64,000 nt of DNA from an uncultured delta proteobacterium (GCA_963711565.1 CAVQEQ010000003.1:317411-381410); one strand, 5' to 3'. Positions 32,245 to 59,094 are shown, numbered from the stretch's first letter. Program-made: numbers and translations. Notes: generated from the sequence alone by a model not told the origin.

Positions 32245-34272
32245 CTACTTTGGGGCTTTGCCGGTTCCTGATAACTCTACGGACTGGGGCGAAGTTGTCA
32301 GGTTGTCGTAGATCATCAGTTCGCCGATCTGTCGCGTCGTGTCGGGTGGGGTGAAGGTTACCTTTACCTTGCAGGTTTTGCCGGGATCTAGCGTTGTGGC
32401 GCATTCCGATTTTATCGTGAAGACCGACGGCGTTGCGGTTTCCATCGCGATGCTTACGGCTACGCCCGTCTTTTTCTTGTTCGTATTTTTGAGCGTTACG
32501 GTCTGGGACTTGCTGGGTGTTCCGACTATCACCTTGCTGCCGAATGAGAGCGAAGCGGGAATTATGCTCAGCCGATTTCTTTCACCGCCGGGGAACAATC
32601 CGAATACAGCGAGCTGGGTTTGCGTACCCATGTAGACCGCGCCGTTGGCTACCGTCGGATTGGTGAACTTTACCGCCGGTCCGGGATCATCCGAGTTGAA
32701 CTGGTTGCTGTTGTATAGCTCGTTATTCAGGCTGGCCGCATCGAAGGCGTAGAGAATCGCGGGACCGGCCGATTTCCATGCCGTACTATCGATCGCCCAC
32801 AGGATGCCGCCGGTGGTGCCGTTGGCTGAGATGACCGGCGACGCGCCGGGGAATCCAAAGGTGTGGTTCGCGGCCGAGGCCCACGGCGTCTTGATCAATC
32901 CATTGGAGAGAACGAACATCTTCGGCTGATCGTTCACGCCGACCGTGTAGATCATGTTCCGCGCGCCGGCCTTCTTTACCGTTCCATTCCAGTACGCAGG
33001 CGTACTGAACATCCCACCGATCTGGCCGTTCAGTTGCTGCACCATCTCGTTCATGCTCGCGTTGAATCCACCCATCGCGTCGCGATTGACAAGATAGATC
33101 GTTCCCAGCTTGCCGACGCCGATCATCAGATGAGGGTTGGGCCCGGGCTGATCGGGCAGCAACAGGTTGCCGCCCGAGCCCATGTCCAGATCGTCGTCGT
33201 CGAGGAGCAACTCGTCCAGCGGTGTGAAAAAGGTGTTGACCGTGAATGAACCGGGCGTGCCGAGGACGGGCGTCAGCCTAAGAAAGCTGTCGCCGTAATC
33301 GACCGGCGACGCGCCGGTATCGAAGTCCCCGTTGCCGGTGATCGCGATTAAATCGCCGTTGGTATCGACGCCGGGACCGCATCCCGCCTCCCAGATGCCG
33401 GCCTGCTGGCCGTTGGGTGTAGTGTTGAACACAGCCACCTGCGCCAGGGTGGTCTCGTCGTAGCCGAGAATCCATCCGTGGTAGGGCTGAACGTCGCAAT
33501 GCGAGGCGAAGGTCAAATAGACGACGCCGTTCGCGAGCGTCAGCGCGGGCCGATCGTGCTGCAGCAGAGGATCGAACGTGATTACGCCGTCAACGCTGTC
33601 CTCTCCAGTTCCCGGCACGCTCGCCGTAATCGTGACGGGACTGTTCGGCTTTATTTCAAACCCAGTCGTGATATCCAGCGCGTGAAGCTGTTGCTGATAC
33701 TCACCGGGACCGAGCTTGACCTTGGAAAGGACGTAGAGCGTCCCGGTGTCGGGGTCAATCACGGGCGTCGCCGTAATCCCAATCATGGGGGTGATGTCGG
33801 TGCATGACGATCCGAGATCGGGCTGCGGCACCGGGGTAATTCCATCGGCGGGATCGATGAAGCTCGTTTGCCATAGCGGAGGACCCGGGGCGTCAGCGTC
33901 AAAGGCGTAGACGCTGTCGTTCTCGGTCGCGACGTATACGACGTTGTGCGTGCCCTGGCCCGGAATCTCGACCGCCGGGACGTAGAGCGGCTGCGCATAG
34001 GCCTCGCCGTCAAGCGCGTCGGTGAAGAGCAGACCGAATTTCGACGCGGTGACGGTAGAGGGAGTCAGCACGCTCTCCGCGAGGTTTTGACCGGTGCGAA
34101 AATTATCGTTGCGGTAAAGGTATTGCCCGGTGTAACCTGGCTCCAGCGCGCGCGCCGAGCGCGATTGCGCCGCCGCGGACGTCGCGCGGCAAATCAGGCC
34201 GATGCCTGAGATAAGTGCGACGAGCGCAGCGCTCAAACCCAGTCGGAACGATCGCTCCGTCACCTTCCCCAC
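32245..34272 (-). CDS. PQQ-like beta-propeller repeat protein with a C-terminal choice-of-anchor-D-like domain (secreted)
   Basis: Signal peptide and repeated propeller blades. The C-terminal ~110 aa resemble the C-termini of the S53 giants. Confidence 0.65.
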   Translation of the reverse strand: MGKVTERSFRLGLSAALVALISGIGLICRATSAAAQSRSARALEPGYTGQYLYRNDNFRTGQNLAESVLTPSTVTASKFGLLFTDALDGEAYAQPLYVPAVEIPGQGTHNVVYVATENDSVYAFDADAPGPPLWQTSFIDPADGITPVPQPDLGSSCTDITPMIGITATPVIDPDTGTLYVLSKVKLGPGEYQQQLHALDITTGFEIKPNSPVTITASVPGTGEDSVDGVITFDPLLQHDRPALTLANGVVYLTFASHCDVQPYHGWILGYDETTLAQVAVFNTTPNGQQAGIWEAGCGPGVDTNGDLIAITGNGDFDTGASPVDYGDSFLRLTPVLGTPGSFTVNTFFTPLDELLLDDDDLDMGSGGNLLLPDQPGPNPHLMIGVGKLGTIYLVNRDAMGGFNASMNEMVQQLNGQIGGMFSTPAYWNGTVKKAGARNMIYTVGVNDQPKMFVLSNGLIKTPWASAANHTFGFPGASPVISANGTTGGILWAIDSTAWKSAGPAILYAFDAASLNNELYNSNQFNSDDPGPAVKFTNPTVANGAVYMGTQTQLAVFGLFPGGERNRLSIIPASLSFGSKVIVGTPSKSQTVTLKNTNKKKTGVAVSIAMETATPSVFTIKSECATTLDPGKTCKVKVTFTPPDTTRQIGELMIYDNLTTSPQSVELSGTGKAPK

Positions 34273-34456
34273 CGAATTGATCTGTCGCGTTTCGCACGCA
34301 TTCTAATGAGGTAAGCGCGGCGCGTCCATCACCGTTTCCCGTCCGACGGCGCCCTCTGACCGCGCACACAAAATTCATACTTGCTTATTGGCAAAGATAA
34401 ATCGTACCTATCAGGGTGCATTCAGGAACGATACGCAAGAACGGGAGGTACGGCCG

Positions 34457-34891
34457 ATGATCACTCAATCGTCGAAGCGATCGATTGTCATTGCGACATT
34501 GGCGCTACTGATGGCCTGCGCGACTGAATCGCGCGCACAAATCAGCAGCTATATTCCGTCTGCGCCGGGTCAGGCGGCGCAGGCACTCACCGGCAGTCAG
34601 CAGTCGGCAGCGAACAGTGCGTTGTGTTCCGCGATTGGGAGCCATTTCCCCAATCCCGCCGCTGCCGGTCCGTCCGCATTGAGCGACCCAGCCGTGATGT
34701 CGACCGCGGCTACGTCATTCGCAGGCAGCACGAGTCTTCCGCTATCGAGCGCCACCGACATGCTGAAAGGGTACGTAGCTCAACATGCCACCGACATCCT
34801 CGCGACGTGCGCAACGAGCAACGCGACGAGCGGCTTGACGTCGAAGATTCCGGGGGGCGGAAGTTTGCCCTCGGTTCCAAAAATGCCCTGA
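34457..34891 (+). CDS. hypothetical secreted Ser/Ala-rich protein
   Basis: Signal peptide (MITQSSKRSIVIATLALLMACA). Confidence 0.4.
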   Translation: MITQSSKRSIVIATLALLMACATESRAQISSYIPSAPGQAAQALTGSQQSAANSALCSAIGSHFPNPAAAGPSALSDPAVMSTAATSFAGSTSLPLSSATDMLKGYVAQHATDILATCATSNATSGLTSKIPGGGSLPSVPKMP

Positions 34892-40005: not shown

Positions 40006-40716
40006 CTAGCCCTTGGGCTTCAGCGAGAAATTCGCCGTAGTCGCCGCGCCGTCCTTCACATTAACTTTCTGAGTGTCAACACCAAGCTTCTCCTGCCACA
40101 CTTCGAGCGTGTAGTCGCCAGGCGGCACGCCCGCGATCGAGAAGTTGCCCTTGTCGTCCGTCACCGCGAAGTATGGAGTGTCGGTCGCGACCCACCATCC
40201 GTGCATCCAGGCGTGCGCATCGCAAGTGACCTTGATCACTTCCGGCTGATCGATTTTTTCCTCGATCACTTTCTTGAACTTGGGCTGCGCCATGTTGAAC
40301 GACGGATTCTTTTCCGAATAGGTGTGGATGTTGTGCAGAATCCCGTCGTCGTTCACGATTTTCACGGTGCTGCCGGCCGGGAACGCGAGCACATGCGGCA
40401 CGTAGTCGCATCCTTTTTGATCGAAGGTTACGTCGCCGGGCTTCATGTCGCCCTTGGCACCTTTCACAACCACGACGGCGTTCGCGATTCCGCCGCTGCT
40501 GTCAACGATGAGATCTTCCGTGAAGTGCGGATGGAGTCCGCAGACTTCCTTGTCCTTGGTCACTTCGACCGGCTTGGGTGCCGGCGCCGTGCCGTCGTAC
40601 TTGACGGTTCCGCTAATCGTGCCGCCGGCTGCGCTCGCGATGCCGGCGCCGACGCTCATGCTGAGCGCGACTCCAGCGCACGCCGCCAGTACAACTGCAT
40701 ACTTTTTCATTACCAT
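40006..40716 (-). CDS. cupredoxin-like (amicyanin-type C-x2-H-x2-M) copper protein with a C-terminal carboxypeptidase-regulatory-like domain
   Basis: Signal peptide. HNIH ... CDAHAWM forms a type-1 Cu ligand set. Last gene of the bc module. Confidence 0.55.
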   Translation of the reverse strand: MVMKKYAVVLAACAGVALSMSVGAGIASAAGGTISGTVKYDGTAPAPKPVEVTKDKEVCGLHPHFTEDLIVDSSGGIANAVVVVKGAKGDMKPGDVTFDQKGCDYVPHVLAFPAGSTVKIVNDDGILHNIHTYSEKNPSFNMAQPKFKKVIEEKIDQPEVIKVTCDAHAWMHGWWVATDTPYFAVTDDKGNFSIAGVPPGDYTLEVWQEKLGVDTQKVNVKDGAATTANFSLKPKG

Positions 40717-40817
40717 TGCCTCCTGGGAAATTACCCGGATAGTTCTACTCAGTCTTAAACAAAAACTCACTTTAGCGAATACTCAGTTGCCAACTCAATC
40801 AACTGGACGATCATAAC

Positions 40818-43607
40818 CTACTTCTTACTCACTTTCGTCGGTGCCTTCTCCGCCTTACTCACTTTTGCCGGCACCGCGGCCACCTGGCCCGGCAGCGTCT
40901 GTCCCGGATGAGTTCCGAACCAGAAAATATAGTCGCGCAGCGCACGGATTTGATCGTCCTGGTTGCCGCCCAGGATGTCGTCGGGACCCCCCGGATAGAA
41001 TGAAGGCATGTGGGTCCCGGGCTGAATCGCCGACGGATTTGCGATCCACTTCAGTATCCAGTCGGGATTCAAGCGCTGATGCGCCAGCGCCAAATCAGGC
41101 GCCCATCCCGATTCCGGCCCTTCGGGCTTCTTGTCGCCCTGCTGATGGCAGCTGAAGCAGTTGAAGTAATCCTTGGTCATCAGCTTGGCGCCCGCCTGCA
41201 ACTCGGCCGGCGGAATCAGGTCGGTGTTGATGAACATGAAGGGCACGTTGATGTCCGACATGGCCGTGAAGTAGTTCACGATGGTGTCGTCTTCGCTGTT
41301 GGTGAAATGGAAGGTCGGCATCCTGATTTTCAGCCACGGACGAATCGGGGTCGGGCCCTGCAGGAATGTGAATAGCCACTGGGGCTGAACCTTGAAGCCC
41401 TCGCCATTGAGTATTGGCGGCGCGAAGTTGATTTCGTCTTCTGAGTAGAAGCGCCGGATGTAGCCGCCGCGATTGTCGATGATGTGGCAGCCGACGCAGT
41501 TGTAGTAATTGACCATTCGCCGGCCCGCGACGATTTCTGTCTGATGCTCCGAGCCGGGCATCCGGTAGCGCTCCTGCACCTTGCCGTCGGTCATGCCGGC
41601 CAGGAACACGACCAGGTTGTTGATGTCGGCGTCGTCGAAATCGAAATTCGGCATCAACTGCTCGACGTCCTTGGTCTGGTAGATGCGCGGCGTCTGCAGT
41701 TTGTGGAACGTCCATTGATCCCAGGTCTCGGGAATCTGGGTCTGGTTGCCGAAAAACAATTCGTCGAGATGCTTGCTGCCGAACACCGTCAGCTCGACAC
41801 CGATGCGCGACTCCTTGTCCATCCCCTCGATCTCGTGGCAGCCGAAGCATCCGTACTTGCGCACGAGCGCTTCGCCCTTCTGGATATTCGCGGGATCCTT
41901 GAGCGCGGTTTCGACGCCGGGGTCTTCTTTCTTCTCGCCATGCGTCATCAGGAACGCGGTCAGCGCCTCGGCCTCGTGATCGCTCAGGCGCAATGACGGC
42001 ATCGCGGTGTGCGGCGAGAAGTCGCGCGGATTTTTCAGCCAGGTGTAAATCCATGCCGCCGAAGTCTTCTCCGCGATCTTGTCCAGGTTCGGCGCGAAGT
42101 CCTTGGTCGTGCGCGCCTCGGCCGGCTTGAAGCCCTCGGCGACGCCGACCGGCGTTCCATAATTATCAGGATCGATCGCGTGGCATCCTTTGCAGCCGAC
42201 CGATTCGAACAGCCCCTTGCCCTCTTCGACGAACGCCGGATTCTTGATGTCGGCCTCGAGCGTCGGCAGTTCCGGATGCGCCGCGAGCCAGTCTTTCGAG
42301 TTCTTCGCCGAGCTGTCCAGGATGAAGGCGGCCAGCTCCGTCGCCTGTTCGGTCGAGAACATGAAATTCGGCATGCGTGTATGCGGCCGGAAGACGTGCG
42401 GATCGGTGATCCAGCGCACGGTCCACGACGGGTCGAGCTTGGCCGACGCCAGTTTCAGGTACGGGCCGATCTTCGGCATCTCCTCGTAGCCCGCGACGAG
42501 ATGGCATCCCGCGCATCCCATCTGCTGGAACATGCGCTCGCCGTCAACCCAGTTGGCCGCGATTGGCTTACCCGCAGCGTCGTGCAGCGAGCCGACGTTG
42601 ATGTGGCACTTGATGCATCGCGATTGCATCTTGTCGCCGCGTAGCATCGGCGAGTCCCAATCCTTGTCATCGCCATGCGCGAGCCGCACCGAGCTGACCG
42701 CGGGCCCCTGGCCGTCGTGACAGGGAGTGCAGCCGAGTTTGTCGGGCGGATGCTTGCCGATGATTTGATCGAAATTGCTATGCGTGCGAAACGGCTGGGG
42801 CGCGTTCTCGAAGCCCTTCTTGTCGGCGCCCATGTGGCAGCTCTGGCATCGATCGACCCGCGCAATCGCCTCGTCGAAGGCGTTGCGGTCGAAGTCGTCG
42901 ATCGCGGTCTGCTGAATCTTGGGAATTTTCGGATAGCGGAAGAGGATGGTGTTGCGGAATTTGACCGGGATCATCCACGAGTCGGCCTTGTCGAAAAAGT
43001 CGTCGCGCTTCGCGGTCAGTTTCTTCAGCTGGTCGGTCAGGCTGTCGACTTTCGAATTCAGCGCCGCGATCTGATCCTTGACTGCCTGCAGATCTGCCTT
43101 GGCCTTGTCGGAGTCGATATTTTCCTGCGCGAGTTCCGCGTCGAGCCTGTCGATATCCTGTTTGAACGGAGTCGGATCCTGCTTGTACTGAATGGCGTGA
43201 TTGTAGTCGTACCATCGCTCGGTCAGATACGACTTGGTGAACCGCACCAGTTGATCCTTGTCGTTGTAGGTGTTGTTCAGACCGACCAGCTGCGCCTTCA
43301 AGTCATCCAGCTTGGCCGCGGTCGCACCCGAATCGAGATCCTTCTGCGCCTCGGCCAGGTCCTTCGATGCTTTCTGATAGGTCGGATCGGCGTTGAGACG
43401 CGCCTGTTCGTCGGCCGCGTCCTTCATGTACTTGTCGTACGCGATGTGATCCCACTCGACCTGGTATTGCTTCCATGGCCGGCGCGAGATGTTGTCGTCC
43501 CAGATCGACCAGACCGCGCTGACCAGCAGCACCGCTACCAGCAGCACGAACAACGCGCTGTATGACTTCCCTTCTTCGGTGGGATCAAGCCCCGGTCTGC
43601 CAGCCAT
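40818..43607 (-). CDS. membrane-anchored octahaem c-type cytochrome with a long N-terminal coiled coil
   Basis: Eight CxxCH motifs (CQSCH, CTPCH, CIKCH, CAGCH, CKGCH, CFGCH, CVGCH, CFSCH). Five are followed by ...MP.F Met-ligand motifs. Confidence 0.85.
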   Translation of the reverse strand: MAGRPGLDPTEEGKSYSALFVLLVAVLLVSAVWSIWDDNISRRPWKQYQVEWDHIAYDKYMKDAADEQARLNADPTYQKASKDLAEAQKDLDSGATAAKLDDLKAQLVGLNNTYNDKDQLVRFTKSYLTERWYDYNHAIQYKQDPTPFKQDIDRLDAELAQENIDSDKAKADLQAVKDQIAALNSKVDSLTDQLKKLTAKRDDFFDKADSWMIPVKFRNTILFRYPKIPKIQQTAIDDFDRNAFDEAIARVDRCQSCHMGADKKGFENAPQPFRTHSNFDQIIGKHPPDKLGCTPCHDGQGPAVSSVRLAHGDDKDWDSPMLRGDKMQSRCIKCHINVGSLHDAAGKPIAANWVDGERMFQQMGCAGCHLVAGYEEMPKIGPYLKLASAKLDPSWTVRWITDPHVFRPHTRMPNFMFSTEQATELAAFILDSSAKNSKDWLAAHPELPTLEADIKNPAFVEEGKGLFESVGCKGCHAIDPDNYGTPVGVAEGFKPAEARTTKDFAPNLDKIAEKTSAAWIYTWLKNPRDFSPHTAMPSLRLSDHEAEALTAFLMTHGEKKEDPGVETALKDPANIQKGEALVRKYGCFGCHEIEGMDKESRIGVELTVFGSKHLDELFFGNQTQIPETWDQWTFHKLQTPRIYQTKDVEQLMPNFDFDDADINNLVVFLAGMTDGKVQERYRMPGSEHQTEIVAGRRMVNYYNCVGCHIIDNRGGYIRRFYSEDEINFAPPILNGEGFKVQPQWLFTFLQGPTPIRPWLKIRMPTFHFTNSEDDTIVNYFTAMSDINVPFMFINTDLIPPAELQAGAKLMTKDYFNCFSCHQQGDKKPEGPESGWAPDLALAHQRLNPDWILKWIANPSAIQPGTHMPSFYPGGPDDILGGNQDDQIRALRDYIFWFGTHPGQTLPGQVAAVPAKVSKAEKAPTKVSKK

Positions 43608-43678
43608 CTGCTCTACCTGTCCTCAAATGCCGCCGCGCGGCCACCGTCCAAATACTCAGTCGAATAGTCAGTCGTCAT

Positions 43679-43855
43679 TTACCCGCGCGAAACCCACACA
43701 CCCTCGATGATGTAGCCGGCCAGAAAAACCAGGATGCCGATCCCGGTGAACTTGTATTCGTTGCCCATCCCGTGCGTCTGCGTGATTCCCACGTAGAGCG
43801 CGAACCCGACGTCGGCGAGGCCGAGCGCCTGCAATACTTTGGCGAGGATGAACAC
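43679..43855 (-). CDS. putative small two-TM subunit (GTG start), in frame with the upstream SUIV-like gene after its TGA
   Basis: Verified translation VFILAKVLQALGLADVGFALYVGITQTHGMGNEYKFTGIGILVFLAGYIIEGVWVSRG*. The ORF-track 43675-43872 product is Ser/Arg-rich junk in another frame. Confidence 0.3.
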   Translation of the reverse strand: MFILAKVLQALGLADVGFALYVGITQTHGMGNEYKFTGIGILVFLAGYIIEGVWVSRG

Positions 43856-43873
43856 GGAGTCGTCGCGGCCACG

Positions 43874-44776
43874 TCAGATGTTAATCCAGGGCGTGACCAG
43901 GATGTACTTGATGTTGAGCGCGTGCCGCAGCGCCATCTTGATGAACACGCCGGCCATCGCGATCAGCAGAAATCCTGTGATGCCGAAGCGCACCGGTCCC
44001 CACTTCTGCAAAATTTCGGGACCGCCACCGGGGAACGCGGACCACGGATCGCCCGCGGGCCGCGATCGTATCCAGAAATACAAAGCCGCGTAGCCGACCA
44101 CGAAATAGCCGACTATCAGAAACAGCCCGAACAGAGCAGACGCCAGGTAGTCGCGGAAGCCGAACATGTACGGCAAATCGACGTTGGTCAGCGCCTCGAC
44201 CAGATGAGGATCCCAGACCTGGCCGGGCCAGAACCAGTTCCAGCCGGGACCGCGGAAAAACGTGCCGATGATAATGAACGAGACCCACAAGATGTGGAAC
44301 CCGACGAAGAAAGCCATAATCTCGAAAAATCGCTCCTTCAGGGTGTAGTAGCCGTTACCCTTCGGATTGATGTCGAGAAACGGGATCAGCATCAGGCCCA
44401 CGATGATGAAGCTCGGCAGCACCACGCCCGCATACCAGGGATCGAAGAACACCAGCATTTCCTGCAGGCCCAGGAAGTACCATGGCGCCTTTGACGGGTT
44501 GGGCGTCCGGGTAGGATTCGACGGCTGTTCAAGTGGCGCGTTGAGCAGCAGCGACCACACCGTCAAGACGATGATGACCAGGATCGACATCAGGAATTCG
44601 TTGCGCACCAGGAACGGCCAGGTGTGCAGTTTCTCCTCGACGCCGCTGCCCGCCTTCTTGATCGGGACTTCGATTCGCTTGCCGCCCGCCGCGGGCGGAG
44701 TCCGCGACGCGGCCCCTGCGCCAGCGCCCGCCGCGCGCATCACGATGCCGCCTTCGTTACCTTCCGGGCTTGCCAT
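43874..44776 (-). CDS. cytochrome b C-terminal domain protein (b6f subunit IV-like) with extra TM helices
   Basis: PWYFLGLQE motif. Confidence 0.85.
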   Translation of the reverse strand: MASPEGNEGGIVMRAAGAGAGAASRTPPAAGGKRIEVPIKKAGSGVEEKLHTWPFLVRNEFLMSILVIIVLTVWSLLLNAPLEQPSNPTRTPNPSKAPWYFLGLQEMLVFFDPWYAGVVLPSFIIVGLMLIPFLDINPKGNGYYTLKERFFEIMAFFVGFHILWVSFIIIGTFFRGPGWNWFWPGQVWDPHLVEALTNVDLPYMFGFRDYLASALFGLFLIVGYFVVGYAALYFWIRSRPAGDPWSAFPGGGPEILQKWGPVRFGITGFLLIAMAGVFIKMALRHALNIKYILVTPWINI

Positions 44777-49000: not shown

Positions 49001-50495
49001 CGGCGTTAGCTACAACATCCGGTACCGAGCGCTGTGCGGTACCGCTCAACGTCGTTTGGTAGCTTTTGGCGGAGAAGAACTTGCTCACTCCGAAACCACC
49101 TTGGCCGGTGGGCGGAGTGTCCGTAGTTCCATCCCACCAGGTCTCTGAGCCGTAAGTCGCTCCCGGTCCTAATGCGAGCGAGGATCCGCCGACCGCGGTC
49201 GCATTCGGCGAATCCGCAGGCACCGAAACCGTATTGGCTGCTCCGTCGAGACAGGTGCTCCCGCTGTCCCCGCTTCCGTTGAAGATTGAGATTCCGCCGG
49301 CAGCGGCATTCTGAAAGATCAAGTCGATGCTCTGGACGTCGGCTAGAGTGGTTTCGTCCTCGCAATAGGCCCAACTGTTGCTGATGATCGTGGAACCGCC
49401 ACTGATTGCGGCATTGAAGAGCGATTGAAAGCTGGCGCCGGACCCTGTGAAAGGTTGGTCATACACCACGACCTTTGCGCCGGGGGCGCCGGACATTACG
49501 TCGTCGATATCGAGTAGTACTTCGTCCTGGTTGGGACCCGGCGATGCGCCGCCATTTACTTTGACTTCGGACAGATTGGTTATCTGCGTAGCCGGCGACC
49601 CGACCAAGTTGAGAAAGTCGGCCACATCGCTCTGCTGGAAGGTGTCAAATTCGATCAGGCCGATGGTTTGTCCGGTGCCATCCACTCCGAGAAATGACGG
49701 TGCCGGCGGATCCAATCCGAAGGGCGCTTTGCCGGTCGGAACAATATATTTCTTCTGCGCCGCGTAGCAGGTCTTATATGCATTTTGTATTGCTTCGGTC
49801 CCGTGGTTCACGATCGGGATTTGAAGCAGGGCGCAAACAATACTAGCGCCAATCAACCTGATCGCGACAACGTCGGAATGGGGCGTAGCTAAATTCGACA
49901 GACCTGCAATCGCTTCCAGGTGCAGAGCCAGGTCAGCCGGCACAGCCGGATCGCGATCATTCGCAAAGAAGATCCGCTTGCCAATCCTATAACTGCTGAT
50001 TCGCAGATCGAACGCGTTTTGCGCCTGCCCGCGCGTTCCGCGCACCGAGAGCGTCAATCGATTTTTCGAGCCGCCGGTGACCTCGAATCCGTTTTTCCTG
50101 AGATACGCTGCCAGCTGCCGATATTCGGAGCGTGAAGGACCGAAACGATCTGCGATTTGGTTCTGTGAAAGAAAGTGATGAAAATTCTTCGAATGCGGAT
50201 CATAGATCTCGTGGAGGTAACGTTCGAATCCGGCCTGGTCGTCATGCTTGAGAACGATCGTCAGCGTTATCGGCGCATTCTCATTTTTGGGATTCGACGA
50301 CGGAACCAGGGTCGCCTTGGTCAGCGCCGGCAACACATGACCGGGCAAGCGAACCATCGCCGGCGCGGCGTCGGCTTGTTCGGTACTTGCTTTAGCTGTC
50401 GATGATCTCGCCGCTAAAACCACCGCCAAAAGCGGAACCAACAGCCATAGGCGGCGTCGAGACAACTGAGCCGGACTTCCCATTTTGATCCCCAT
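46040..50495 (-). CDS. giant secreted sedolisin (S53) peptidase with Big_1, NHL-like propeller and choice-of-anchor-D domains; frameshifted near 47300
   Basis: Pro-kumamolisin activation domain, catalytic SGTSSSTP, two Big_1 domains and a propeller. The Thr-Ala linker and the C-terminal module read in a second frame. The ORF fragments are 47256-50495 and 46040-47392. Confidence 0.7.
46411..46490. repeat. imperfect trinucleotide/hexanucleotide (GCN)n repeat encoding a (Thr-Ala)n-Pro linker
   Basis: A counterpart of different length lies at 50991-51066. Confidence 0.6.
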
Positions 50496-50622
50496 TCTTA
50501 ACTGGCGATGACGAATTTAGACTCGCATCGACCATTACTTCATCGGCAATGCGAGATTCAAGCTCAAATTTACGCTCAAATCTCTTTTCACCGCGTCAGA
50601 ACAAATTTCGCCCATCACCTTG

Positions 50623-53600
50623 TCATTGCTTCGGCTCCTTGCCGCTGCCCTCGAGCTTGACGCTCTTGTCGTCACCCACCTCGAGGTTGGTGTCTATTGT
50701 GAGCGTGCCGCTGTACTTCATCGCGGCGGTCGGGGCGAATTCCACTGAGACTTCGCAACTGCCAGGGGCCACGCCTTTGGATTTCGGGCCGAGGTCATCG
50801 TCGTTGCATTCCTGGGTCAGCGTGAACGGACTCCCGACGCCGGATTCCATCTCGATCAGAATCGGCAGCGGGACCTTTTTCTTCTTTACCTTGCCCGCAT
50901 TGGTGATCTTGACCGTCTTGATCTTGTTGGAGCCCACCTCAACGGCGCCGAAATTCAGTCTCTTGGGCGAAATCTTTAGCTTGCCGGGGACCGGAGTCGG
51001 TGTTGCGGTTGGAGTCGCAGTGGCGGTCGCGGTTGCAGTTGCAGTGGCGGTGGCGGTTGGAGTCGGCGGAGTTAGTCCCACGACCGTGAATGGCCTGGAG
51101 TCGCTCGACGGATTGTATTGCGAGGTTCCAGGGAAGTTCGCGGCAAGTCTCATGAGTCCAGTGCCCGATGGCGTGATCTGACACGAGGCGTTGCCGTTGC
51201 TGTCGGTTGTGGCGCCGCATCCCGCGCCGCCGATGGTGAAGTTCACAGTTTCACCCGCAAGCGCGACTTGAGGAATCGCCGATTGATCCGTCAGGTTCGC
51301 CGTCACGGTGACAAGTTGGCTCGCGGCCGCGCTGGACGGGCTCGCGTTGAGAGTAAGGAAGGTCACATCCGATCCGGGTCCCCAGGTGATGACGGCCTGA
51401 TTCGAGACGAGCGACGAACTGGCCACGGTCGCCGAGGCTGAAATGGTATCCACTCCCTGATGGGTCGCGGTGTAGGTGAACGATGCCGCGCCGCCTACGC
51501 TGTTGGCCTCGACAAACTGCGGGTTCGCCCCGGTCACACCCAGCAAGACCGGCGTTCCATCGGTGACGGTGACATTGTGGAAGCGTGCCGTGAACGTCTG
51601 CGCGCTGCCCTGCGGCGGGTTGGGCGAGACGGTCGTAGGCGTCAGAACGAGCGATGGTGCCGAGAGGCTGGCCACAAAGCCGCAAGTGCCGTCGGGATTG
51701 CTGATCCTCAATACTTCGTTACCATTGGCAATATAGAGGCATCCGTCGGGACCGAAAGTCGCGTTCTCTGCCGCGGGGACGATGCCGCTATTCACCAGGA
51801 TAGAGCCGGTGCTGGGAGGGTTGGTGGTGAGATCAAGCGTGGCGACCGCGTCGCTGAGCGTGCCGATTGCGGTGCCGAAGATAAGGAACTGCGCTCCGCC
51901 GCCTTTTGCGGTTCCCGATGCGGCCAGAAATTCTGCCGCCGGCATCGGGCCGGAGAGCACGTTGACGGGAGCCGGTTGAGTGCCGGCGGTGCCGCCCACC
52001 TCGACGATTTGGCCGTCGCCGGCATTGCCGAACACGTAGATGGTCCCATCGGCCGCGAAGGTAATCTGGTAGTTGCCCTGATTGGGCAGGGTCGCGTAGG
52101 TGGAAACTGTGGGAGTGGTCGCAAGATTGGAGATACGCAGCAGCGCGCCGCTACCGTTGGGACCCTCGCAACCATCATCGACGAAGAGATCGCCACTGAG
52201 AGGATCGACCGCCATCTCGAGCGGGCAATTGAGATTCCCGGCAACGGTGTTGAGAACGGCGCCGGTGCTCGGATCGATTTGAAGCACGGCGCCGGTGCCC
52301 AGATTGCTGCCAGTCGAGCCGCGGACCGCGTAGAGGTTGCCGCCGTCGAATACCAGTTGGCCGAGGAGGGGACCGATGGTGCCAATCAGATTGCTCGCGC
52401 TCGCGGCGCCGCCGCCTGATGGAATCTTGTAAATGGCGCCGTTGAACTCCTCGCCTACATACAGATTGCCCGAAGCGTCGAACGCGAGGCCCCACGCCCC
52501 GGGGCATCCGCCAAAGTCTCCGCCTGCGTATGAGAAGTTTTCCGAAAACAATCCGGTGACATACGGAGTGACGAGGTACCCCGGTGCCGACATGGTATTT
52601 CCGTTTCCGCATCCCGTTTCGGGCCCGCTGCTGAAGGTCACCTGGGTGGTTTCGGGGAAGGCAAGATTGCCGTCGGTCACATCGGTCGCCGTGTAAGTGA
52701 CGGTCTCATCGTCAGTGTCATATCCTGTGAACACGATTTGGCCCGCGGAGTCGGTGACCTGCGGAATGGGCCCAGTGATGACAGAGTTGCCGGTCTGATT
52801 GAGCTGGATCTGCTTGCCCGGCGATGGACGCCCGAGTGTGTCCTCGAGCGTCACGGTAATAGTGGTGGGATGTGCGCCGTCAGCAGTGACGGTCGTCGGG
52901 AACGCAGTCAGCCCGGCCGACGTTGCGGGCGGCGGAACGAATGAGAGTGTAGGTTGCTGCGCCAAGATTACGCTGTCGGTCACATCCGTAGCAGTAAGAG
53001 TAAGATTTTCAGTGTTGAGATCGGTGATGGAAAAGACCGCGGCGCCGTCATTATCTGTCACGGCGAAGGGAGGGGTAATCGTGGCACTGCCGGCGGCTGC
53101 TGTTAGCGATACACTCTTACCACTGATTGGAAACCCGTTGGTGTCCGTAAGGACCGCCTGCGACAGCGCGGTGGTGACGCCGTCGGCGGGGGCAGAACCG
53201 TCCGCGTTGGCCCCTGCCGCGAATGCAACCGAGAGACTCGGGCTGGCCGCGCCTGGGGATAAGCCGGTTAGAGCCAGCCGCAACTGCAGAAAATCGGGCG
53301 ATCCCAAGCCGACGTGCGCGAAGTCGGAACCCAACGATGCCGCGGAGTGGAACGCATTGGTATTTGCCAGCGGATATAAATGCAAGTTGGCGTTGCCGAG
53401 GTTGGAGCCCAGCATCGCGTTCAGGGCGGCCGCGTAGGCCGCCCATTCCGGCGCCGCCATACTGGTCCCGCCAAAGCGACGCCCGCTCAGACAACCGCCC
53501 AAATCCGCCTGGCAAATCTGAAGGCCCTGCGCCGGGTCAGCATCAATCACCACGTCCGGTATCGAGCGCATCGTGGAGCCGCTCAATCCGCTTTGGTAAG

Positions 53601-55201
53601 CCGGGGCGGGGAAGAATTTACTTACGCCGTAACCACCCTGCCCCGTGGGTGGCGTATGACTGACGCCATTCCACCACGTCTCGCTCCCGTACGTCAGGCC
53701 GGGGCCGGGCGCGGGACTGGTGCCGCCGACAGCGGTCGCATTGGGAGAATCGGCAGGCACTCCGATGGTGTTTGCGCTGCCGTCAAGGCAGGTGGTGCCG
53801 GAATCGCCGCTGCCGTTAAAGACGCTAATCCCGCCCGCCGCGGCCGATTGGAGAACCGTATCAATGCTTTTCACCTCGGACAGTGACATCTGGTCTTCGC
53901 ACTCTGACCACGAGTTGCTGATGACAGTATCGCCATCGTCGATCATGGCTTGGAACATCGTCCCAAACGAGGTTCCATTGGGGGCGTCGTAAACGACGTA
54001 GCTGGTCGCGGGCAACGCAGCCAGCGACATTACCGTATCGACGTTGAGCAGAACCTCTGACTCCCCTGGTCCCGGTGTCGCCACGCCGCCGTCCACCGGC
54101 ACTGTGCTTAGCTGTCCGAAGTCGGCGCCGCCGCCGCCCACCTCCAACCAGTCTTGTACATCGCTGGGCGTGAATGTGTCGAACTCCAGCAGGCCGATTT
54201 TCTGTGGGTTGGTGCCCAGATTCGAGGCCGGGGCCGCTCGGGATGAATCTCTCGCGGCAGGTGCGCGCACACCGGCAAGGAAAGCGTTGTAGAAGTCGGC
54301 ACACCCCTTGTTGGTTGACCAAATAGAAGAGTCGATACCCGCCAAGAGAGAACAAAGCCCATAAGCCCAGCCCGACGCGAACGCAAAACCGAGGCAGGCT
54401 ACCTCGACAACCTCCGCCGCTGGCGGGGCCACCGTAATGATGCCGGCTTCCACAATACCAATCGCGGAAGGAGTGGTGGTCGGAGTTAACGGGAAACAGA
54501 ACGTCGTTGGTGACCTCCCAGTCCGGTGCGGACGCCGCAGGCCGGGCGGCCAGCCCGGTGTCCGGCGCCGAGCGGGACGGGATCGCGAGATTTGACAAAC
54601 CGGCAATCGATTGCACTCGCGACGCCAATTTGAGCGGCAACGCAGGATCGCCGTCATTGGCGCGAAAAGTCCGGCTACCGATGCGATAGTCCGCGATGCG
54701 CACGTCGAACGCGCGCTCTACATTCGCTCGCGTGCCGCGCATCGTGAGCGTCAAGCGATTCTTCGCGCCGCGTTCGAGTTTGAATCCCTTCGATACCATC
54801 CAGCGCAGGACGGAGTTGTACTCGGCGCGGCTCGGGCCGAAACGATTGGCAATCTGCCGCTGGGTCAGAAATTTGTGGAAATTTCTTGAATGCGGATCGT
54901 AGAGGTCCTGCAGGAAGCGCTCGAAGGACGGCTGATCGTCGCGCTTGAGCACGAGCGTCAGCGTGAGCGGCTCAGTTTCGCTGGTGACGCTCGAAGGAAC
55001 AATGGTTGCCTTCGACAGTGCCGGCAGCACGTAACCCGGCAGACGAACCATCGCGGGCGCGTCATCACCACGGTCGGCGCTCGCTGTTGCAATCGAGGGG
55101 CTAGCGAAGAAAAGCGAAGCTAACGAGAGAACCCACAGCCACAAACGAGCCAGAGAGAGAACTTTCATTTTCAACTCTCTTGATTTCGATCCCGCGTCCA
55201 C
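50623..55201 (-). CDS. giant secreted sedolisin (S53) peptidase paralogue with Big_1, propeller and choice-of-anchor-D domains; frameshifted near 54480
   Basis: The prodomain ORF 53861-55201 is real to about 54490. The main ORF 50623-54657 is real from about 54475. The C-terminal ~125 aa are near-identical to the paralogue. Confidence 0.7.
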
Positions 55202-55470
55202 CTTCGCAGGGCTCAGAAGCGAGCCAAGACTGAGCTAATCCAAGATATAGGGCAGCTAACTACTATTGCATTGAGATTGTGTCAAATAGTTCCTAGAAGC
55301 AGAACATGACTTCCAGCTCGCATTTCAGCTTCCAGCATGCATATTCCGGCGATTCGTGGCCATATATGGCGCTTGTGTGCCACAAACGGCGCGGCAGGAA
55401 ACCTAACCGCCGGAGAGATTATGTCGCCCCGGCGGTTTCGGGATCGGAATGGTCAAGCTGTTCTATCAGC

Positions 55471-57834
55471 TCATGGTCCGATCCCCGTCATGCTGATGTT
55501 ATGCGGGCTGTCGGGATCGCTGCCGACGCTCACCGCGATGCTCGCGCTCTCCGGCGATCCGCCGCCAGTCGGCATAAACGTCACCGCGATCGTGCAACTC
55601 GAGTTCGCCGCCACCATCGAGCCGCAGGTACCGCCGTTCAGAGCGAAATCGCTTGCGTTGGAGCCGGTGATGCTCGCACTCACAGACAACGAAGACCCCG
55701 ACAGGTTGGTGACTGTCACGTCCTTGGTCTTCGACGAAGTCCGCGCCGTCAGCGTGCCGAACGCGAGCGTAGCCGCCGGTGTGACCGTTGCCGGGATCGT
55801 CGAGCCAGTGGTGAATCCAACCGTGTACGAATCAAGCGGGTCGGGAGAGTCGGTAACCGTCATTGACGTCGCTTCCGTGCCCAGCGCGGTCGGTGCGTAG
55901 GTAACAATCAGTGTGCAAGTCGACTTGGCCCCGAGGGTCGAAGTGCAGGTGCCGCCCGTGACGCCGAAGTCACCGGCGTTCAGGCCGCTGAAGGTCGGCG
56001 GGAGCGTCAGCGAAACCGCGTTGGTCTGATAATTGTGCACCGTGATCGTCTTGGTCTTGCTGGAGCCAATCTTCACGCTGCCGAAGGCGAAGCTGGCGGG
56101 CGTAACGGCCATAGTGATCGTGCCGGTGCCGGTGAGCGTCACATGCTGCGGGCTGGTGGCGGTGTTGTCTTCGACCGAAAGAGATGCGCTGCGCGCGCCA
56201 AGCGCGTTGGGCCTGAAGCCGATCGCGATGGTGCAGCTGGTCAGCGGCGCGATTCCGCCCGCTAGGCAGGTAGTGGTACCGGTGGAGGCGAATTCAGGGT
56301 CAGACGAGGTCACATGAACGAACAGCGGGTTGGTGTGGCCGGTGTTCCTGACGGTGAGGTTCTTCACGATCTTGTCGCCAACCGGCGAGTTGCCGAGTGC
56401 CAGCGAGGCAGCCACCGAAATCGTGGTCGGAGCGTTGGCGATCTCATACACGGTGCCATTGGCGACAACACCGAAAGAGCCGCCGTCCAGAGTCGTGCCG
56501 TAGAGATTGCCGATCGGATCGATGAGCAGGCTCGCCCAGGGCAGAGAGCCGTCGGTGGTGGCGGGGTTGCCAAAGTTCCAGAGGATTGTCTCGCCCCAGC
56601 TTCCCCCGCCCATCGTAGGCGGAGTCAGCTTGTACGCCGTGCCCCCTACATAAGGTTCATCGCTATAGAGCCCGCCGTATTCGGTGGTGCCGTAGACATT
56701 GCCGTTCGGATCGATCACCACGCCGCCCACCGGGGAAAAGCCGTCCGTGCCGTTGTCCTGAAAATTCCAGAGAACTTGCTCGGTCCACGAACCCCCGCCG
56801 CTGCCCGGAGGTGACAGCTCGAACGCCGTCCCGACTCCGCTTACGCCGGTTGCAAAATCCGCGGAAGTCCCGCCTAACGCGGTCGTGCCGTAGATATTGC
56901 CCAGCCTATCCATTATCAGGCCGGACACCGGTTGGGCGCCGTCATCGACGCTGCTGGGGCCGTAGGTGTCGCCAAAGTTCCAGAGGACCGAATAGCCACC
57001 GCCCGAAGTGATCTCGAACAACACTCCGCCCGGGTCAGAACTGCCATAGTTGCTCCCGCCGCCCGAAGTCGTGCCGAAGAGATCGCCGCTGCCATCTCCA
57101 ATCACGCCGGCATAGGGAAGAAAGCCGTTAAGGCCGGGATTGCCGGCGCCACCTTCAGCGAATTGCATCAGGATTTTCTCGGTCCACCCCGGACCGCTTG
57201 AGGGCGGTGATAGCTCGTACACCGTCCCATCGAAGCCCGGGCCGTCAAACGTCTGACCTTCGAGCGTCGTGCCGAACAGATTGCCGTTCTTATCCATGAT
57301 CAGGCCGGAAGTGGGCTCATAGCCGTCGGTGACGGCGGGGTTGCCAAAGCTCCAGAGAATCGTCTCGGTCCAAGGTCCCCCACTTATGATGGGCGGTGAC
57401 AGCTCCCACGCGGCGCCAAGATTGTAAGCGCCTCCAGCCTGAGTCGTCCCGTACAGGTTGCCGTGCGAATCCATCACCAGGCCGGATCCCCAGGTCCAGG
57501 GGAGATAGCCGTCGGTGCCGTTGTTGTTGAAGTTCCAGAGGATTGTCTGCGTCCACATTCCGCCGCCGGTCGTCGGCGGTGACAGCTCGTACACGACGCC
57601 CTCGCTGTGAGTCCCGCCGTTGGGAGCCGTGCCGTAGAAATTACCCTGCCCATCCTCGATCAGGCTGGAATGGGGGTAAGACCCGGTCGCTCCTGTGCCG
57701 CCTGAGTTGAAGTTGAAAAGCACGCTCTCGCTAGGACTTGGGCCGGAGTCGCTGTGAGCGCTTAAGCTCACCATCGCTAGCGTAAGGAGAAGGCCGAGAA
57801 TGATCAGCGGGAATGTCGGTTTTGAAAATCGCAA
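55471..57834 (-). CDS. secreted tandem-repeat (Gloeo_Verruco/GloVer-like) protein with three C-terminal choice-of-anchor-D-like domains
   Basis: At least 10 repeats of ~45 aa (G.LYGTT..GG....G.VYELSPP...W.E.ILW.F), then three ~110-aa Ig-like domains. Confidence 0.75.
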   Translation of the reverse strand: MRFSKPTFPLIILGLLLTLAMVSLSAHSDSGPSPSESVLFNFNSGGTGATGSYPHSSLIEDGQGNFYGTAPNGGTHSEGVVYELSPPTTGGGMWTQTILWNFNNNGTDGYLPWTWGSGLVMDSHGNLYGTTQAGGAYNLGAAWELSPPIISGGPWTETILWSFGNPAVTDGYEPTSGLIMDKNGNLFGTTLEGQTFDGPGFDGTVYELSPPSSGPGWTEKILMQFAEGGAGNPGLNGFLPYAGVIGDGSGDLFGTTSGGGSNYGSSDPGGVLFEITSGGGYSVLWNFGDTYGPSSVDDGAQPVSGLIMDRLGNIYGTTALGGTSADFATGVSGVGTAFELSPPGSGGGSWTEQVLWNFQDNGTDGFSPVGGVVIDPNGNVYGTTEYGGLYSDEPYVGGTAYKLTPPTMGGGSWGETILWNFGNPATTDGSLPWASLLIDPIGNLYGTTLDGGSFGVVANGTVYEIANAPTTISVAASLALGNSPVGDKIVKNLTVRNTGHTNPLFVHVTSSDPEFASTGTTTCLAGGIAPLTSCTIAIGFRPNALGARSASLSVEDNTATSPQHVTLTGTGTITMAVTPASFAFGSVKIGSSKTKTITVHNYQTNAVSLTLPPTFSGLNAGDFGVTGGTCTSTLGAKSTCTLIVTYAPTALGTEATSMTVTDSPDPLDSYTVGFTTGSTIPATVTPAATLAFGTLTARTSSKTKDVTVTNLSGSSLSVSASITGSNASDFALNGGTCGSMVAANSSCTIAVTFMPTGGGSPESASIAVSVGSDPDSPHNISMTGIGP

Positions 57835-57975
57835 GACTAATCGCCTATTTGCCTAACGTGAGTTACTAATGATTCACGAAGCGTTTATATCTCTTACTTT
57901 GACGCTATATTTCGTACTAAAAGTTACTGTTGCGATACTTGACGTACGGCTACGGCATTTGACCCAAGCCGGGCA

Positions 57976-59094
57976 ATGGGGAAATGTACCCCCTACTCCT
58001 CAATGACCGAGTGGCGACAATACGAGACGTTGGTGCGTCTGCTTCCGGAGTTGTATTCAGCGCAGACGCTCGAAACCTTGCCGAAGCACGTAACTGGCCT
58101 GCTTCCGCGATTGATGGGGGTCGATTCGTCCGGCTACAACGAAACCAACTTCGCGCGCCGTCGGTTCGAGGCCCTCTCGCATCCTTCAGCGGAGGCGTGC
58201 GGAATTCCCAATGCGCCCGAAACCCTCGCCCGCCTGATGCATCAGCATCCGATGGTCGTGCACAATCGCAACGGCGACCAGCGCGCGCTGAAGATGTCGG
58301 ACCTGATTTCGCAACGACGGTTTCATCGGCTTGAGCTGTACGACATGGTCTATCGGCCGACGCGGGTCGAATACCTGATGACCGGGGGATTCAAGCTGTC
58401 CCGGGCCGGCGACATCGTAACGGTCGGCTTCGGACGCGAAACGAGGGACTTCAGCGAAGACGAGCGGGATTTGCTGAATCTGTTTCTGCCGCATCTGCGA
58501 CAGGCCTATGCGAACGCAGACGCGATGACGACGTTCCAGAGCCAACTCGAAGGCCGCCAACAATTTCTCGAAGAGCAGTTGAATACGGCGGCCGTCGTCG
58601 TTCAGGACCTGGCGATCAAACACGCAAGCCGGCTCGCGATCCGATGGCTGTCGAGCTTTTTCCGCGACGATCCAGCTCGCAATGACAAGCTTCCCGACCG
58701 GCTCGAGCGGTGGGTTCGGTTCTGCCAAACCTCGATGGACGGCACGCAGTCCGAGATCAAGCCGTGCTCGCCGTTGACGGTGGAATCAGAGGAGGCGCGC
58801 CTCGAAATCCGGATGCTCAAGACCAGTCGGGACGGCGAGGTCGTTCTGTTGCTGAAGCGCGAGACCACTCGCGATTGTCCGGAGATGCTGCAGCGACGGC
58901 TGGGCCTCGCTCCGCGCGAAGCGGAAGTACTGTTTTGGATATCGAAGGGCAAGACTAGCCGCGAGACCGCCGCGATTTTGTCGATCACGCGCAAGACCGT
59001 GGACCATCACGTCGAACGCATTCATCGGAAGCTCGGCACCGAGACCCGCACCGCGGCCGCCGCAATCGCATGGAACGCGATGCGCGATTCCTAG
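57976..59094 (+). CDS. LuxR-family (GerE HTH) transcriptional regulator with an uncharacterised N-terminal domain
   Basis: C-terminal EAEVLFWISKGKTSRETAAILSITRKTVDHHVERIHRKLG. Confidence 0.8.
   Translation: MGKCTPYSSMTEWRQYETLVRLLPELYSAQTLETLPKHVTGLLPRLMGVDSSGYNETNFARRRFEALSHPSAEACGIPNAPETLARLMHQHPMVVHNRNGDQRALKMSDLISQRRFHRLELYDMVYRPTRVEYLMTGGFKLSRAGDIVTVGFGRETRDFSEDERDLLNLFLPHLRQAYANADAMTTFQSQLEGRQQFLEEQLNTAAVVVQDLAIKHASRLAIRWLSSFFRDDPARNDKLPDRLERWVRFCQTSMDGTQSEIKPCSPLTVESEEARLEIRMLKTSRDGEVVLLLKRETTRDCPEMLQRRLGLAPREAEVLFWISKGKTSRETAAILSITRKTVDHHVERIHRKLGTETRTAAAAIAWNAMRDS

Follow-up and report, generated by a model that had tools for sequence, protein, structure and literature searches.

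The 'choice-of-anchor' protein families take their name from the differing real anchors of their members (LPXTG, PEP-CTERM or T9SS). The domain does not itself serve as the anchor. Choice-of-anchor D is a generic repeat with 74,593 cluster representatives, many of which carry 10–61 tandem copies in mid-protein. T9SS, a further system in which exported proteins end in an Ig-like domain, is to our knowledge confined to the Bacteroidota/FCB group. Terminal Ig domains of secreted enzymes can be purely stabilising. For Vibrio cholerae VesB, grafting of the Ig-fold onto beta-lactamase led to EpsC-PDZ-dependent T2SS secretion, and deletion of the Ig-fold destabilised the protein (PMC12369372).

Here we analyse a 64-kb stretch of DNA (the window), probably from an uncultured, Binataceae-like soil bacterium; relatives are attributed to Binatota. 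Four of its signal-peptide proteins end in modules of the choice-of-anchor D family, and the gene of one of them is divergent from that of a LuxR-family regulator.

Results

Six copies of the module, ~105–125 aa long and with 2 Cys each, form the C-termini of the four proteins. At all four N-termini, direct reading of the sequences revealed a basic n-region followed by a hydrophobic core and an Ala-rich cleavage region. A search of six-frame translations of the 64-kb window with an HMM of the six modules returned no seventh copy. The modules align with one another, with the Cys pair and G/N/P positions invariant and 24–42% identity between proteins, so that both the relatedness of the four C-termini and the conserved Cys pair claimed in a preliminary description of this DNA hold. 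The KxK-rich strand described there does not: instead of one strand, the Lys cluster occupies chiefly the C-terminal tail and the loop that follows strand B.

The NCBIfam model NF012200 (choice_anch_D; curated cutoff, 45 bits) matched the C-termini of all four proteins, and the Pfam families ASH, HYDIN_VesB_CFA65-like_Ig and Cep192_D4 fell on the same stretches. The three single modules scored 44.7, 42.9 and 40.4 bits, just below the NF012200 cutoff, with E-values of 1e-10 to 1e-11. An AF2 model of the module of the 32245–34272 protein (pLDDT 89.3, 8 strands) was compared with the PDB by Foldseek; the top match was the HYDIN PapD-like domain 2e6j (E 1.5e-6, TM 0.72), and other matches included V. 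cholerae VesB (4lk4), VesC (6bqm), 7ptb and 6fvi. The module is therefore a choice-of-anchor D/PapD-like ASH Ig domain in both family and fold. Relatives from Binatus and Binataceae are already named 'choice-of-anchor D domain-containing protein' by NCBI.

The first carrier, a 675-aa signal-peptide protein (32245–34272, minus strand), consists of an unclassified N-terminal domain of ~530 aa and one module (DNA 32248–32592, minus strand), which ends in ...LSGTGKAPK and has a net charge of +7. NF012200 covers residues 568–656 (E 1.6e-11), and Cep192_D4 (39.5 bits, cutoff 35.5) and ASH (29.8 bits, cutoff 27) exceed their Pfam gathering scores. It had been called a PQQ propeller, a label that we dropped as unsupported: the N-terminal 560 aa have no significant Pfam match (best PQQ_2, E 0.35, 10.9 bits), and searches of this domain against the PDB, with phmmer and with a 30-sequence profile, gave nothing relevant. 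An exact-sequence look-up of the whole protein gave no match. Among homologues of the 530-aa domain the number of C-terminal modules varies, as judged by their lengths (about 670 versus 800–900 aa) and Pfam matches.

Two tandem paralogs, S53a (46040–50495) and S53b (50623–55201), both on the minus strand, share one architecture: pro-kumamolisin activation domain, peptidase region, two Big_1 domains, a propeller-like region, Big_3_5, a Thr/Ala/Pro linker and a single terminal module (46043–46417 and 50626–51000, respectively, minus strand). The description of both as S53 giants is correct as regards the Pro-kuma_activ domain (101.3 and 99.3 bits, cutoff 23.5) and the terminal module; as single ORFs it is not, each gene being frameshifted in the assembly. 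S53a is split into 47256–50495 and 46040–47392, with the frameshift close to a run of GGGG around 47310, and S53b into 53861–55201 and 50623–54657, with the frameshift between 54447 and 54578. These breaks are probably assembly indel errors, since a 98% identical contig (L022) breaks elsewhere: it has S53a intact as a 1438-aa ORF, with S53b and the gene of the fourth carrier split at other places, and the comparison shows 25 gaps in 11.7 kb; another contig, L023, has the latter gene intact. True pseudogenes and programmed shifts were rejected on the same grounds. At E<0.01 neither NCBIfam nor Pfam listed a family for the S53 catalytic domain; both proteins show a serine motif of the GTSxxxP type.

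NF012200 matched the C-terminal ORFs of S53a (46040–47392, minus strand, E 5.6e-11) and S53b (50623–54657, minus strand, E 3.3e-10). HYDIN_VesB reached 28.9 bits on the former, above its gathering score of 25.5, and the long ORF of S53b fell slightly under the Pfam cutoffs for the Ig families although its module is 99% identical to that of S53a; at this identity the two modules count as one sequence, not as independent examples. The last ~450 nt of the two genes are 94.7% identical and their 3′ ends 95–98%, versus 65–68% elsewhere. No consensus promoter or terminator was found in the S53 intergenic gaps.

The fourth carrier (55471–57834, minus strand; 787 aa, TTG start) has a signal peptide, seven GloVer repeats and three tandem modules (56119–56430, 55795–56118 and 55474–55794, minus strand; net charge 0, -1 and -2), in keeping with the Gloeo_Verruco-like protein with three module copies first described. 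TIGR03803 matched seven stretches with 166.1 bits (cutoff 44) and NF012200 three stretches with 144 bits, above its cutoff; Pfam gave ASH 70.2 and HYDIN_VesB 64.9. Nothing follows the last module, and GC-rich hairpins lie downstream of the stop codon.

The modules fall into two subtypes, the neutral or acidic tandem copies of the GloVer protein and a strongly basic, single, terminal form that we call type K, carried in the window by the 675-aa protein, S53a and S53b. Type K has 12–18 Lys, follows a Thr/Pro linker and ends in ...GxGKAPKKK. Its net charge is +4 to +13, versus -6 to +1 for tandem copies, which are acidic in type-K loci; all copies have exactly 2 Cys. In every case it is the final domain, and at least five unrelated N-terminal architectures carry it: the unclassified 530-aa domain, S53 peptidases, a beta-helix protein, GH30-like proteins and DUF7948+SBBP propellers. 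Among its 120 best database relatives, 110 end no more than one residue past the module, with tails such as GKAPKKK. Owing to a bias of the tool, this homologue search gave mainly fragments of 87–220 aa and was used for C-terminal ends, not for architectures; the terminal position is thus well supported, and about 10 loci underlie the range of architectures.

The regulator (58003–59094, plus strand; 363 aa) is a LuxR-family one-component protein with a ligand-binding domain of the VqsR/LasR-like GAF type, a long helix, a PAS-like domain and, at the C-terminus, a GerE HTH (PF00196, 50 bits, cutoff 23.5). Its ATG at 58003 is a likelier start than the listed ORF start at 57976, and an exact-sequence look-up of the ORF from 57976 gave no match. 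Its PDB matches (RhlR, CviR and SdiA) are confined to the C-terminal ~60–95 residues with the HTH. The regulator had no match to Pfam Autoind_bind, nor did any neighbouring gene scanned against Pfam match a luxI-type synthase. The XrtB/PEP-CTERM-associated regulator EpsA (TIGR03020) was rejected as an identity, at 50.1 bits versus a cutoff of 170 and with the HTH alone covered.

The regulator gene and the GloVer gene diverge, as the preliminary description had it, across an AT-rich control region (57835–58002; 44% GC versus about 60% in the window) with TTGAC at 57899, 57939 and 57959. The TTGAC boxes lie in phased repeats, and 20-nt direct repeats occur in the region upstream of LuxR. Only the LuxR-proximal TTGAC, 44 nt from the ATG, is invariant in relatives. 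It falls within a conserved core of 93 nt (57910–58002) with the invariant blocks ACGGCATTTGAC and CAAT..GGAA.TGTAC, for which an nhmmer profile found one match per locus. A consensus promoter scan passed over the TTGAC boxes, its sole match being TTTATA-16-TATATT at 57884–57911.

The motif had been expected upstream of the other module genes as well, and the four genes to form a co-regulated exoprotein set. Neither expectation is supported. The k-mers CATTTGAC and AAAGTTACT occur in the spacer alone and nowhere upstream of other module genes; with up to 3 mismatches GGCATTTGACNNAAG had 17 matches versus 14.6 expected, none of them upstream of the 675-aa protein (PQQ-like) gene or the S53 genes. 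Because the element occurs once per locus and never before these genes, and GC-rich hairpins follow the GloVer stop codon, co-regulation of all four lacks support.

The pairing of the LuxR gene with a module gene and the 93-nt DNA element are conserved. A divergent neighbour ending in the module accompanies the LuxR ortholog in 11 of 15 distinct loci, within two different wider gene contexts; these loci are related by descent, so the count does not represent 11 independent events. The four loci without such a neighbour are L002, L010, L020 and L027. At L025 the pairing is kept in another context, a ribonucleotide-reductase neighbourhood, and it persists across changes of the neighbour's N-domain. 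Between the cytochrome bc genes and LuxR lies an island whose gene content varies from locus to locus. A link in more distant LuxR homologues was rejected: two contexts at 30–32% identity (L016 and L018/L019) are without it.

Discussion

We propose that Sec-exported proteins each gained a PapD-like/ASH Ig domain at the C-terminus through domain shuffling, for which we count the near-identity of the S53a and S53b 3′ ends and the variable module number among homologues of the 530-aa domain. For the GloVer protein, with its three tandem copies, we assume the usual use of this repeat as an adhesin stalk. The likeliest role of type K is that of a module for non-covalent targeting, as opposed to a sorting signal that is cleaved or of the sortase type. 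After Sec export it would fold in the periplasm, where its Cys pair probably forms a disulfide. Two roles, alone or together, are then proposed: it could mark its passenger for recognition by the type II secretion machinery, as with the structurally related VesB Ig-fold, and its positive charge could retain the enzyme on anionic polymers of the surface or matrix. The LuxR-family regulator, as a ligand-sensing one-component factor, probably controls itself and only the divergent exoprotein gene. To this whole account, with shuffled Ig modules, type K as a targeting module and LuxR controlling the divergent gene, we give about an even chance of being right.

A serious though doubtful alternative is that the module is a mere structural appendage, serving folding, stability or spacing without any part in targeting and spread by shuffling in a lineage with an expanded family, with LuxR adjacency as synteny inherited at a variable 'exoprotein island' and not a sign of regulation. 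The enormous size of the family, mostly internal or tandem, would fit this reading, as would the gene-converted look of the S53 3′ ends, the differing module numbers among paralogs and the destabilisation of VesB on removal of its Ig-fold (PMC12369372). So would the changing content of the cytochrome bc–LuxR island and the other module genes being without a shared upstream motif. What it leaves unexplained is why type K always comes last, singly and after a linker, and is always strongly basic and Lys-tailed when the tandem copies of the same loci are acidic, and why the LuxR pairing survives in the L025 context and across changes of the neighbour's N-domain.

We consider it improbable that dedicated machinery recognises type K as a genuine C-terminal sorting domain, like the T9SS CTD or PEP-CTERM/exosortase, perhaps with cleavage and surface attachment. 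This was the first reading of the locus, a shared surface-anchoring or secretion tag, and the strictly terminal, VesB-like type K agrees with part of it: like T9SS cargo, many unrelated Sec-exported passengers carry the module at the end of a linker, and the extreme C-terminal GxGKAPKKK is conserved. Against it, sorting-signal models (NCBIfam, E<0.01) matched none of the four proteins, and direct reading found nothing beyond 0–6 residues after the module, with neither a transmembrane segment nor a sortase-type motif. The only export gene found in the 64-kb window was the general SecD, with T2SS or other candidate machinery absent among the ORFs scanned. The generic repeat to which the module is homologous also lies mostly inside proteins, and to take the module for the anchor itself was to over-read the family name.

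The 93-nt element is very unlikely to be a cis-regulatory RNA leader instead of a promoter/operator: a 4-bp hairpin (57977–57992) directly 5′ of the LuxR start codon stays paired across two compensatory changes, found in the window and L004, with 98% of cells paired and the observed covariation reached by 2 of 500 shuffles, and no Shine-Dalgarno sequence is visible before the start, but this one short helix is all that the RNAalifold consensus supports (outer helices being without convincing covariation), the two variant sequences are mutual closest relatives, Rfam has no family in the whole window (gathering thresholds) or in 57700–58150 even at E<=1, the invariant TTGAC and the 20-nt direct repeats resemble a -35 box and protein-binding sites, and the 44 nt from TTGAC to ATG leave almost no room for a leader.

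A bolder version of the targeting account, in which type K is a lineage-specific export and retention tag that defines the exoenzyme secretome of Binatia and some Terriglobia and combines portable T2SS recognition with subsequent electrostatic envelope docking, its cargo genes being switched on by a dedicated VqsR-like LuxR sensor, we regard as unlikely. Binatia are an abundant soil phylum without cultured representatives. If type K does direct secretion or retention, it would provide a simple sequence rule for their secreted-enzyme repertoire of proteases, glycosidase-like proteins and beta-helix proteins, and Ig-fold T2SS signals would extend beyond Vibrio. If the module is merely structural, the result amounts to routine annotation of a domain that is very common. 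The conserved regulator–cargo pair, with its compact and well-delimited operator region, offers a tractable test case of one-component regulation in Binatia.

Among known systems, V. cholerae VesB/VesC (4lk4, 6bqm), the second-ranked structural match, are secreted, Sec-exported proteases that also carry a PapD-like Ig domain at the C-terminus. In VesB, however, a GlyGly-CTERM/rhombosortase signal follows the Ig-fold, which is absent here; identity is about 18%, the Lys-rich loop and tail are peculiar to type K, and VesB is secreted by the T2SS, of which the window ORFs scanned show none. The T9SS C-terminal domain (Por_Secre_tail) of Bacteroidota cargo is likewise an Ig-like beta-sandwich (~100 aa) that terminates diverse Sec-exported passengers, but it had no NCBIfam or Pfam match here and was absent among the 50 Foldseek PDB matches listed.

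The regulator resembles LuxR solos with a VqsR/LasR-type domain but, at 363 aa versus about 240 aa, has an additional long helix and PAS-like domain. The 55471–57834 protein shares its seven repeats with GloVer (TIGR03803) choice-of-anchor proteins and differs in ending in three Ig modules without an anchor signal. The closest relatives of the modules are the choice-of-anchor D domain (NF012200) and its Pfam counterparts ASH (PF15780), HYDIN/VesB/CFA65-like Ig (PF22544) and Cep192_D4, which they match in sequence, fold and two-Cys pattern. No LPXTG, PEP-CTERM or T9SS anchor follows the modules here, in contrast to that family, and type-K copies stand apart in scoring just under its cutoff and in being strongly basic, Lys-tailed single copies at the terminus that a T/P linker precedes. 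Type K is a modest variant of an already known Ig domain family.

Related C-terminal modules on four secreted proteins

Four minus-strand genes of the window encode proteins that end in an Ig-like module: a 675-aa protein (32245-34272), two S53-type peptidases in tandem, S53a (46040-50495) and S53b (50623-55201), and a protein with GloVer repeats (55471-57834). The NCBIfam model NF012200 (choice-of-anchor D) matched the C-terminus of each, three times in the GloVer protein, and the Pfam families ASH, HYDIN_VesB_CFA65-like_Ig and Cep192_D4 matched the same stretches. The six modules could be aligned with one another; two cysteines are invariant in the alignment, as are a small number of Gly, Asn and Pro positions. 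When all six reading frames of the 64 kb were searched with an HMM of these modules, no seventh copy emerged. Typical Sec signal peptides were read directly from all four protein sequences. The preliminary description had reported related modules on four secreted proteins beside a LuxR-type regulator, and the family matches, the module alignment and the GerE assignment of the regulator establish that this core observation is real.

For the 675-aa protein, AlphaFold models the terminal module confidently (pLDDT 89) with eight strands; the best PDB matches of this model were the HYDIN PapD-like domain (2e6j), the C-terminal Ig-folds of VesB (4lk4) and VesC (6bqm), and CEP192 ASH domains. The module belongs to known families or falls just short of them, relatives having already been named choice-of-anchor D proteins by NCBI, and there is nothing unusual in the assignments to GloVer, the S53 pro-domain and GerE. 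Across public data, the combined six-module profile matched 74,593 cluster representatives, many of them giant proteins with 10–61 tandem internal copies. Judged by these sequences, the family as a whole is not a terminal tag but a generic repeat of extracellular proteins.

A basic, strictly terminal subtype

Alignment of the window modules with those of related loci separated two groups. GloVer proteins carry 3–4 tandem copies, neutral or acidic (net charge −6 to +1). In each of the remaining proteins there is a single copy at the terminus, here called type K, which follows a Thr/Pro/Ala linker (TATPTATPTPVG...) and has 12–18 lysines, a net charge of +4 to +13 and a pI of 9.1–10.2. Its strand B is followed by a Lys-rich loop (KNxGxKKTG), and its C-terminal tail reads ...LSGxGKAPKKK. 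Every copy of both subtypes contains exactly two Cys.

At least five architectures unrelated to one another have type K at their extreme end: an unclassified 530-aa domain, an S53 peptidase with Big_1 and Big_3_5, a right-handed beta-helix (locus L001), GH30-like proteins (L005 and L011, weak matches) and DUF7948 with SBBP propellers (L007 and L003). Its profile matched 494 proteins at E≤1e-10; among the best 120, which are mostly gene fragments owing to a bias of the search, 110 end at most one residue from the boundary of the module and share its Lys tail. The sources named for relatives are Candidatus Binatus, Binataceae, Acidoferrum and Terriglobia MAGs. To our knowledge, neither this basic, strictly terminal, linker-attached module with its Lys tail nor its distribution across unrelated exoenzymes of Binatia-like bacteria has been described.

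The 675-aa protein had been labelled a PQQ propeller, a label that is unverified: in Pfam, its N-terminal 560 aa match nothing significantly (PQQ_2 comes closest, E 0.35), and a PDB sequence search with this part, also as a 30-sequence profile, gave no match. The N-domain proper (~530 aa; 32593-34188, minus strand) has no significant Pfam or NCBIfam match and at least 8,000 unannotated homologues, the best matches being 61–95% identical and from Binatus/Binataceae. Judging from the lengths and Pfam matches of these homologues, the number of C-terminal modules seems to vary among them; by sequence the domain appears to represent a large family of uncharacterised exoproteins.

Gene models and transcription units

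Neither S53 gene is the single giant originally described, each being broken by one frameshift in the window assembly. In S53a the frame switches near a GGGG run at ~47310 (overlap 47256-47392), so that the module lies in a separate ORF (46040-47392); in S53b the switch falls between 54447 and 54578. In contig L022, 98% identical to the window, S53a is intact (1438 aa) and the S53 break sites of the window are unbroken; the GloVer gene is intact in another contig, L023. Since in L022 itself S53b and the GloVer gene are split at different positions, with 25 gaps over 11.7 kb, the S53 frameshifts are most likely indel errors of long-read assembly and not signs of pseudogenes.

The modules of S53a and S53b are 99% identical. 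At the nucleotide level, the 3' ends comprising ~450 nt of linker and module (46040-46490 versus 50623-51075) are 94.7% identical and the last 300 nt 98%, against 65–68% in the remainder of the genes. This pattern points to a recent gene conversion or module swap, and the two S53 modules therefore count as one example.

Similar GC-rich inverted repeats (AACCGCCG...CGGCGGTT) lie 3' of the GloVer stop (55405-55437) and of the S53a stop (45972-46006), and none between S53b and S53a, which suggests that GloVer forms one transcription unit and S53b–S53a another. The gap upstream of S53a holds a 16-nt inverted repeat without spacer (50553-50584; GAGATTCAAGCTCAAA/TTTACGCTCAAATCTC), within which are two AAATTTGAGC direct repeats. 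The variable exoprotein island is flanked by a respiratory cluster (40006-45724, minus strand), as it is by the same genes in L001 and L026; the cluster consists of a protein with a CarboxypepD_reg domain, one of 929 aa that is rich in CxxCH motifs, and a cytochrome b whose C- and N-terminal parts are separate genes.

The regulator and its control region

The gene transcribed divergently from the GloVer gene (listed as 57976-59094, plus strand) was confirmed as a LuxR-type regulator by a Pfam match to the GerE/LuxR helix-turn-helix. Its start is probably 58003, not the 57976 of the ORF caller, because homologues are 361–363 aa long and align from MTEWRQYE (ATG at 58003); the listed start falls within a conserved non-coding element. 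The structural model (pLDDT 88) has four parts, including a long helix, a PAS-like domain and the helix-turn-helix. No Autoind_bind match was found in the regulator sequence, and no synthase among the neighbouring genes scanned. Convergent with the regulator, a gene at 59163-59555 (minus strand) encodes a 130-aa protein without family match whose N-terminus is acidic and whose C-terminal part has a hydrophobic region resembling two membrane spans; a gene similar in size and position occurs in L026 and L022.

The spacer is AT-rich (44% GC), as had been noted, with TTGAC at 57899, 57939 and 57959 (spacings of 40 and 20 nt). Comparison with LuxR orthologues from genomes and metagenomes (55–98% identity) delimited a 93-nt element immediately 5' of the regulator start codon, present once per locus and nowhere else in all loci with enough upstream sequence. 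It contains two invariant blocks, ACGGCATTTGAC and CAAT..GGAA.TGTAC, and a 20-nt direct repeat (GCGGCATTTGACCTATCGCT/ACGGCATTTGACCTAAGCCG). In relatives, the proximal TTGAC alone is invariant; 5 of 13 sequences retain the middle one, and few the distal one. Taken over its full length, the element is conserved to about the same degree as third codon positions (identity to the window 0.70 versus 0.67), and in these alignments its conservation signal resides in the blocks. Directly before the ATG lies a 4-bp hairpin (TACG-GAAATGTA-CGTA) whose 8-nt loop, GAAATGTA, does not vary; its pairing is maintained in the window (TGGG...CCCC, 57977-57992) and in L004 (TAGG/CCTA) by compensatory changes. The hairpin may be an RNA element or an operator. 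No Shine-Dalgarno sequence is visible, and the spacer and element have no Rfam match.

A search for the spacer motif (57835-57975) upstream of the other module genes had been proposed, and the four genes had been taken as a co-regulated set. Neither the 93-nt element nor its core motif occurs upstream of the 675-aa protein gene or the S53 genes; given this and the GC-rich hairpins after the GloVer and S53a stops, a single four-gene regulon is unsupported. On a shared upstream motif the preliminary interpretation was wrong.

A recurrent pairing of regulator and module gene

In 11 of 15 distinct orthologous loci, which are related by descent and therefore not independent, the regulator's divergent neighbour has the module at its end, with an N-terminal part that varies. 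The neighbour has GloVer repeats and 3–4 modules in the window, L003, L004, L012/L014 and L026; type K follows a beta-helix in L001, a GH30-like part in L005/L006 and L011, DUF7948/SBBP in L007 and unclassified proteins in L024 and L025. Four module genes surround the regulator in L024, and in L025 the wider neighbourhood is different, the pair lying beside ribonucleotide reductase and not cytochrome bc genes. The pairing is absent in L002, L010 and L027 (carboxylesterase), in the 55%-identity locus L020, and in the contexts examined of homologues at 30–32% identity. Because the module-ending neighbour persists through changes of N-domain and context, these comparisons suggest that the two genes are functionally linked. 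We know of no earlier description of such a conserved pairing with a VqsR-like LuxR regulator and a compact conserved control region.

A possible role in targeting or retention

The preliminary interpretation, a shared cell-surface anchoring or secretion tag, is partly supported. A terminal module as common targeting or retention device is plausible, given the unrelated architectures and the VesB precedent; the anchor name was over-read. Among the window ORFs scanned with Pfam, which include housekeeping and respiratory genes and SecD, there is no dedicated sorting or secretion system.

The occurrence of type K on unrelated architectures, the Sec signal peptides and the VesB precedent are the grounds for the mechanism that we consider most likely. 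The proteins would be exported by Sec and fold in the periplasm, probably with a disulfide; the basic terminal Ig module would then act as a non-covalent recognition and/or retention element, recognised by a T2SS, attached through electrostatic contacts to anionic polymers of the envelope or matrix, or both.

Comparison with known systems

No T9SS C-terminal domain appeared among the 50 PDB structure matches listed for the module model. In the choice-of-anchor D family (NF012200) the domain itself is not the anchor, the name referring to the different true anchors that members carry (LPXTG, PEP-CTERM or T9SS), and reading the name as implying anchoring by the module was wrong. The window proteins have no such anchor signal, all four ending 0–6 residues past the module. 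VesB offers a precedent: in a 2025 study, its Ig-fold grafted onto a periplasmic beta-lactamase drove T2SS secretion, which needed the EpsC PDZ domain, and the purified PDZ domain captured the chimera (PMC12369372).
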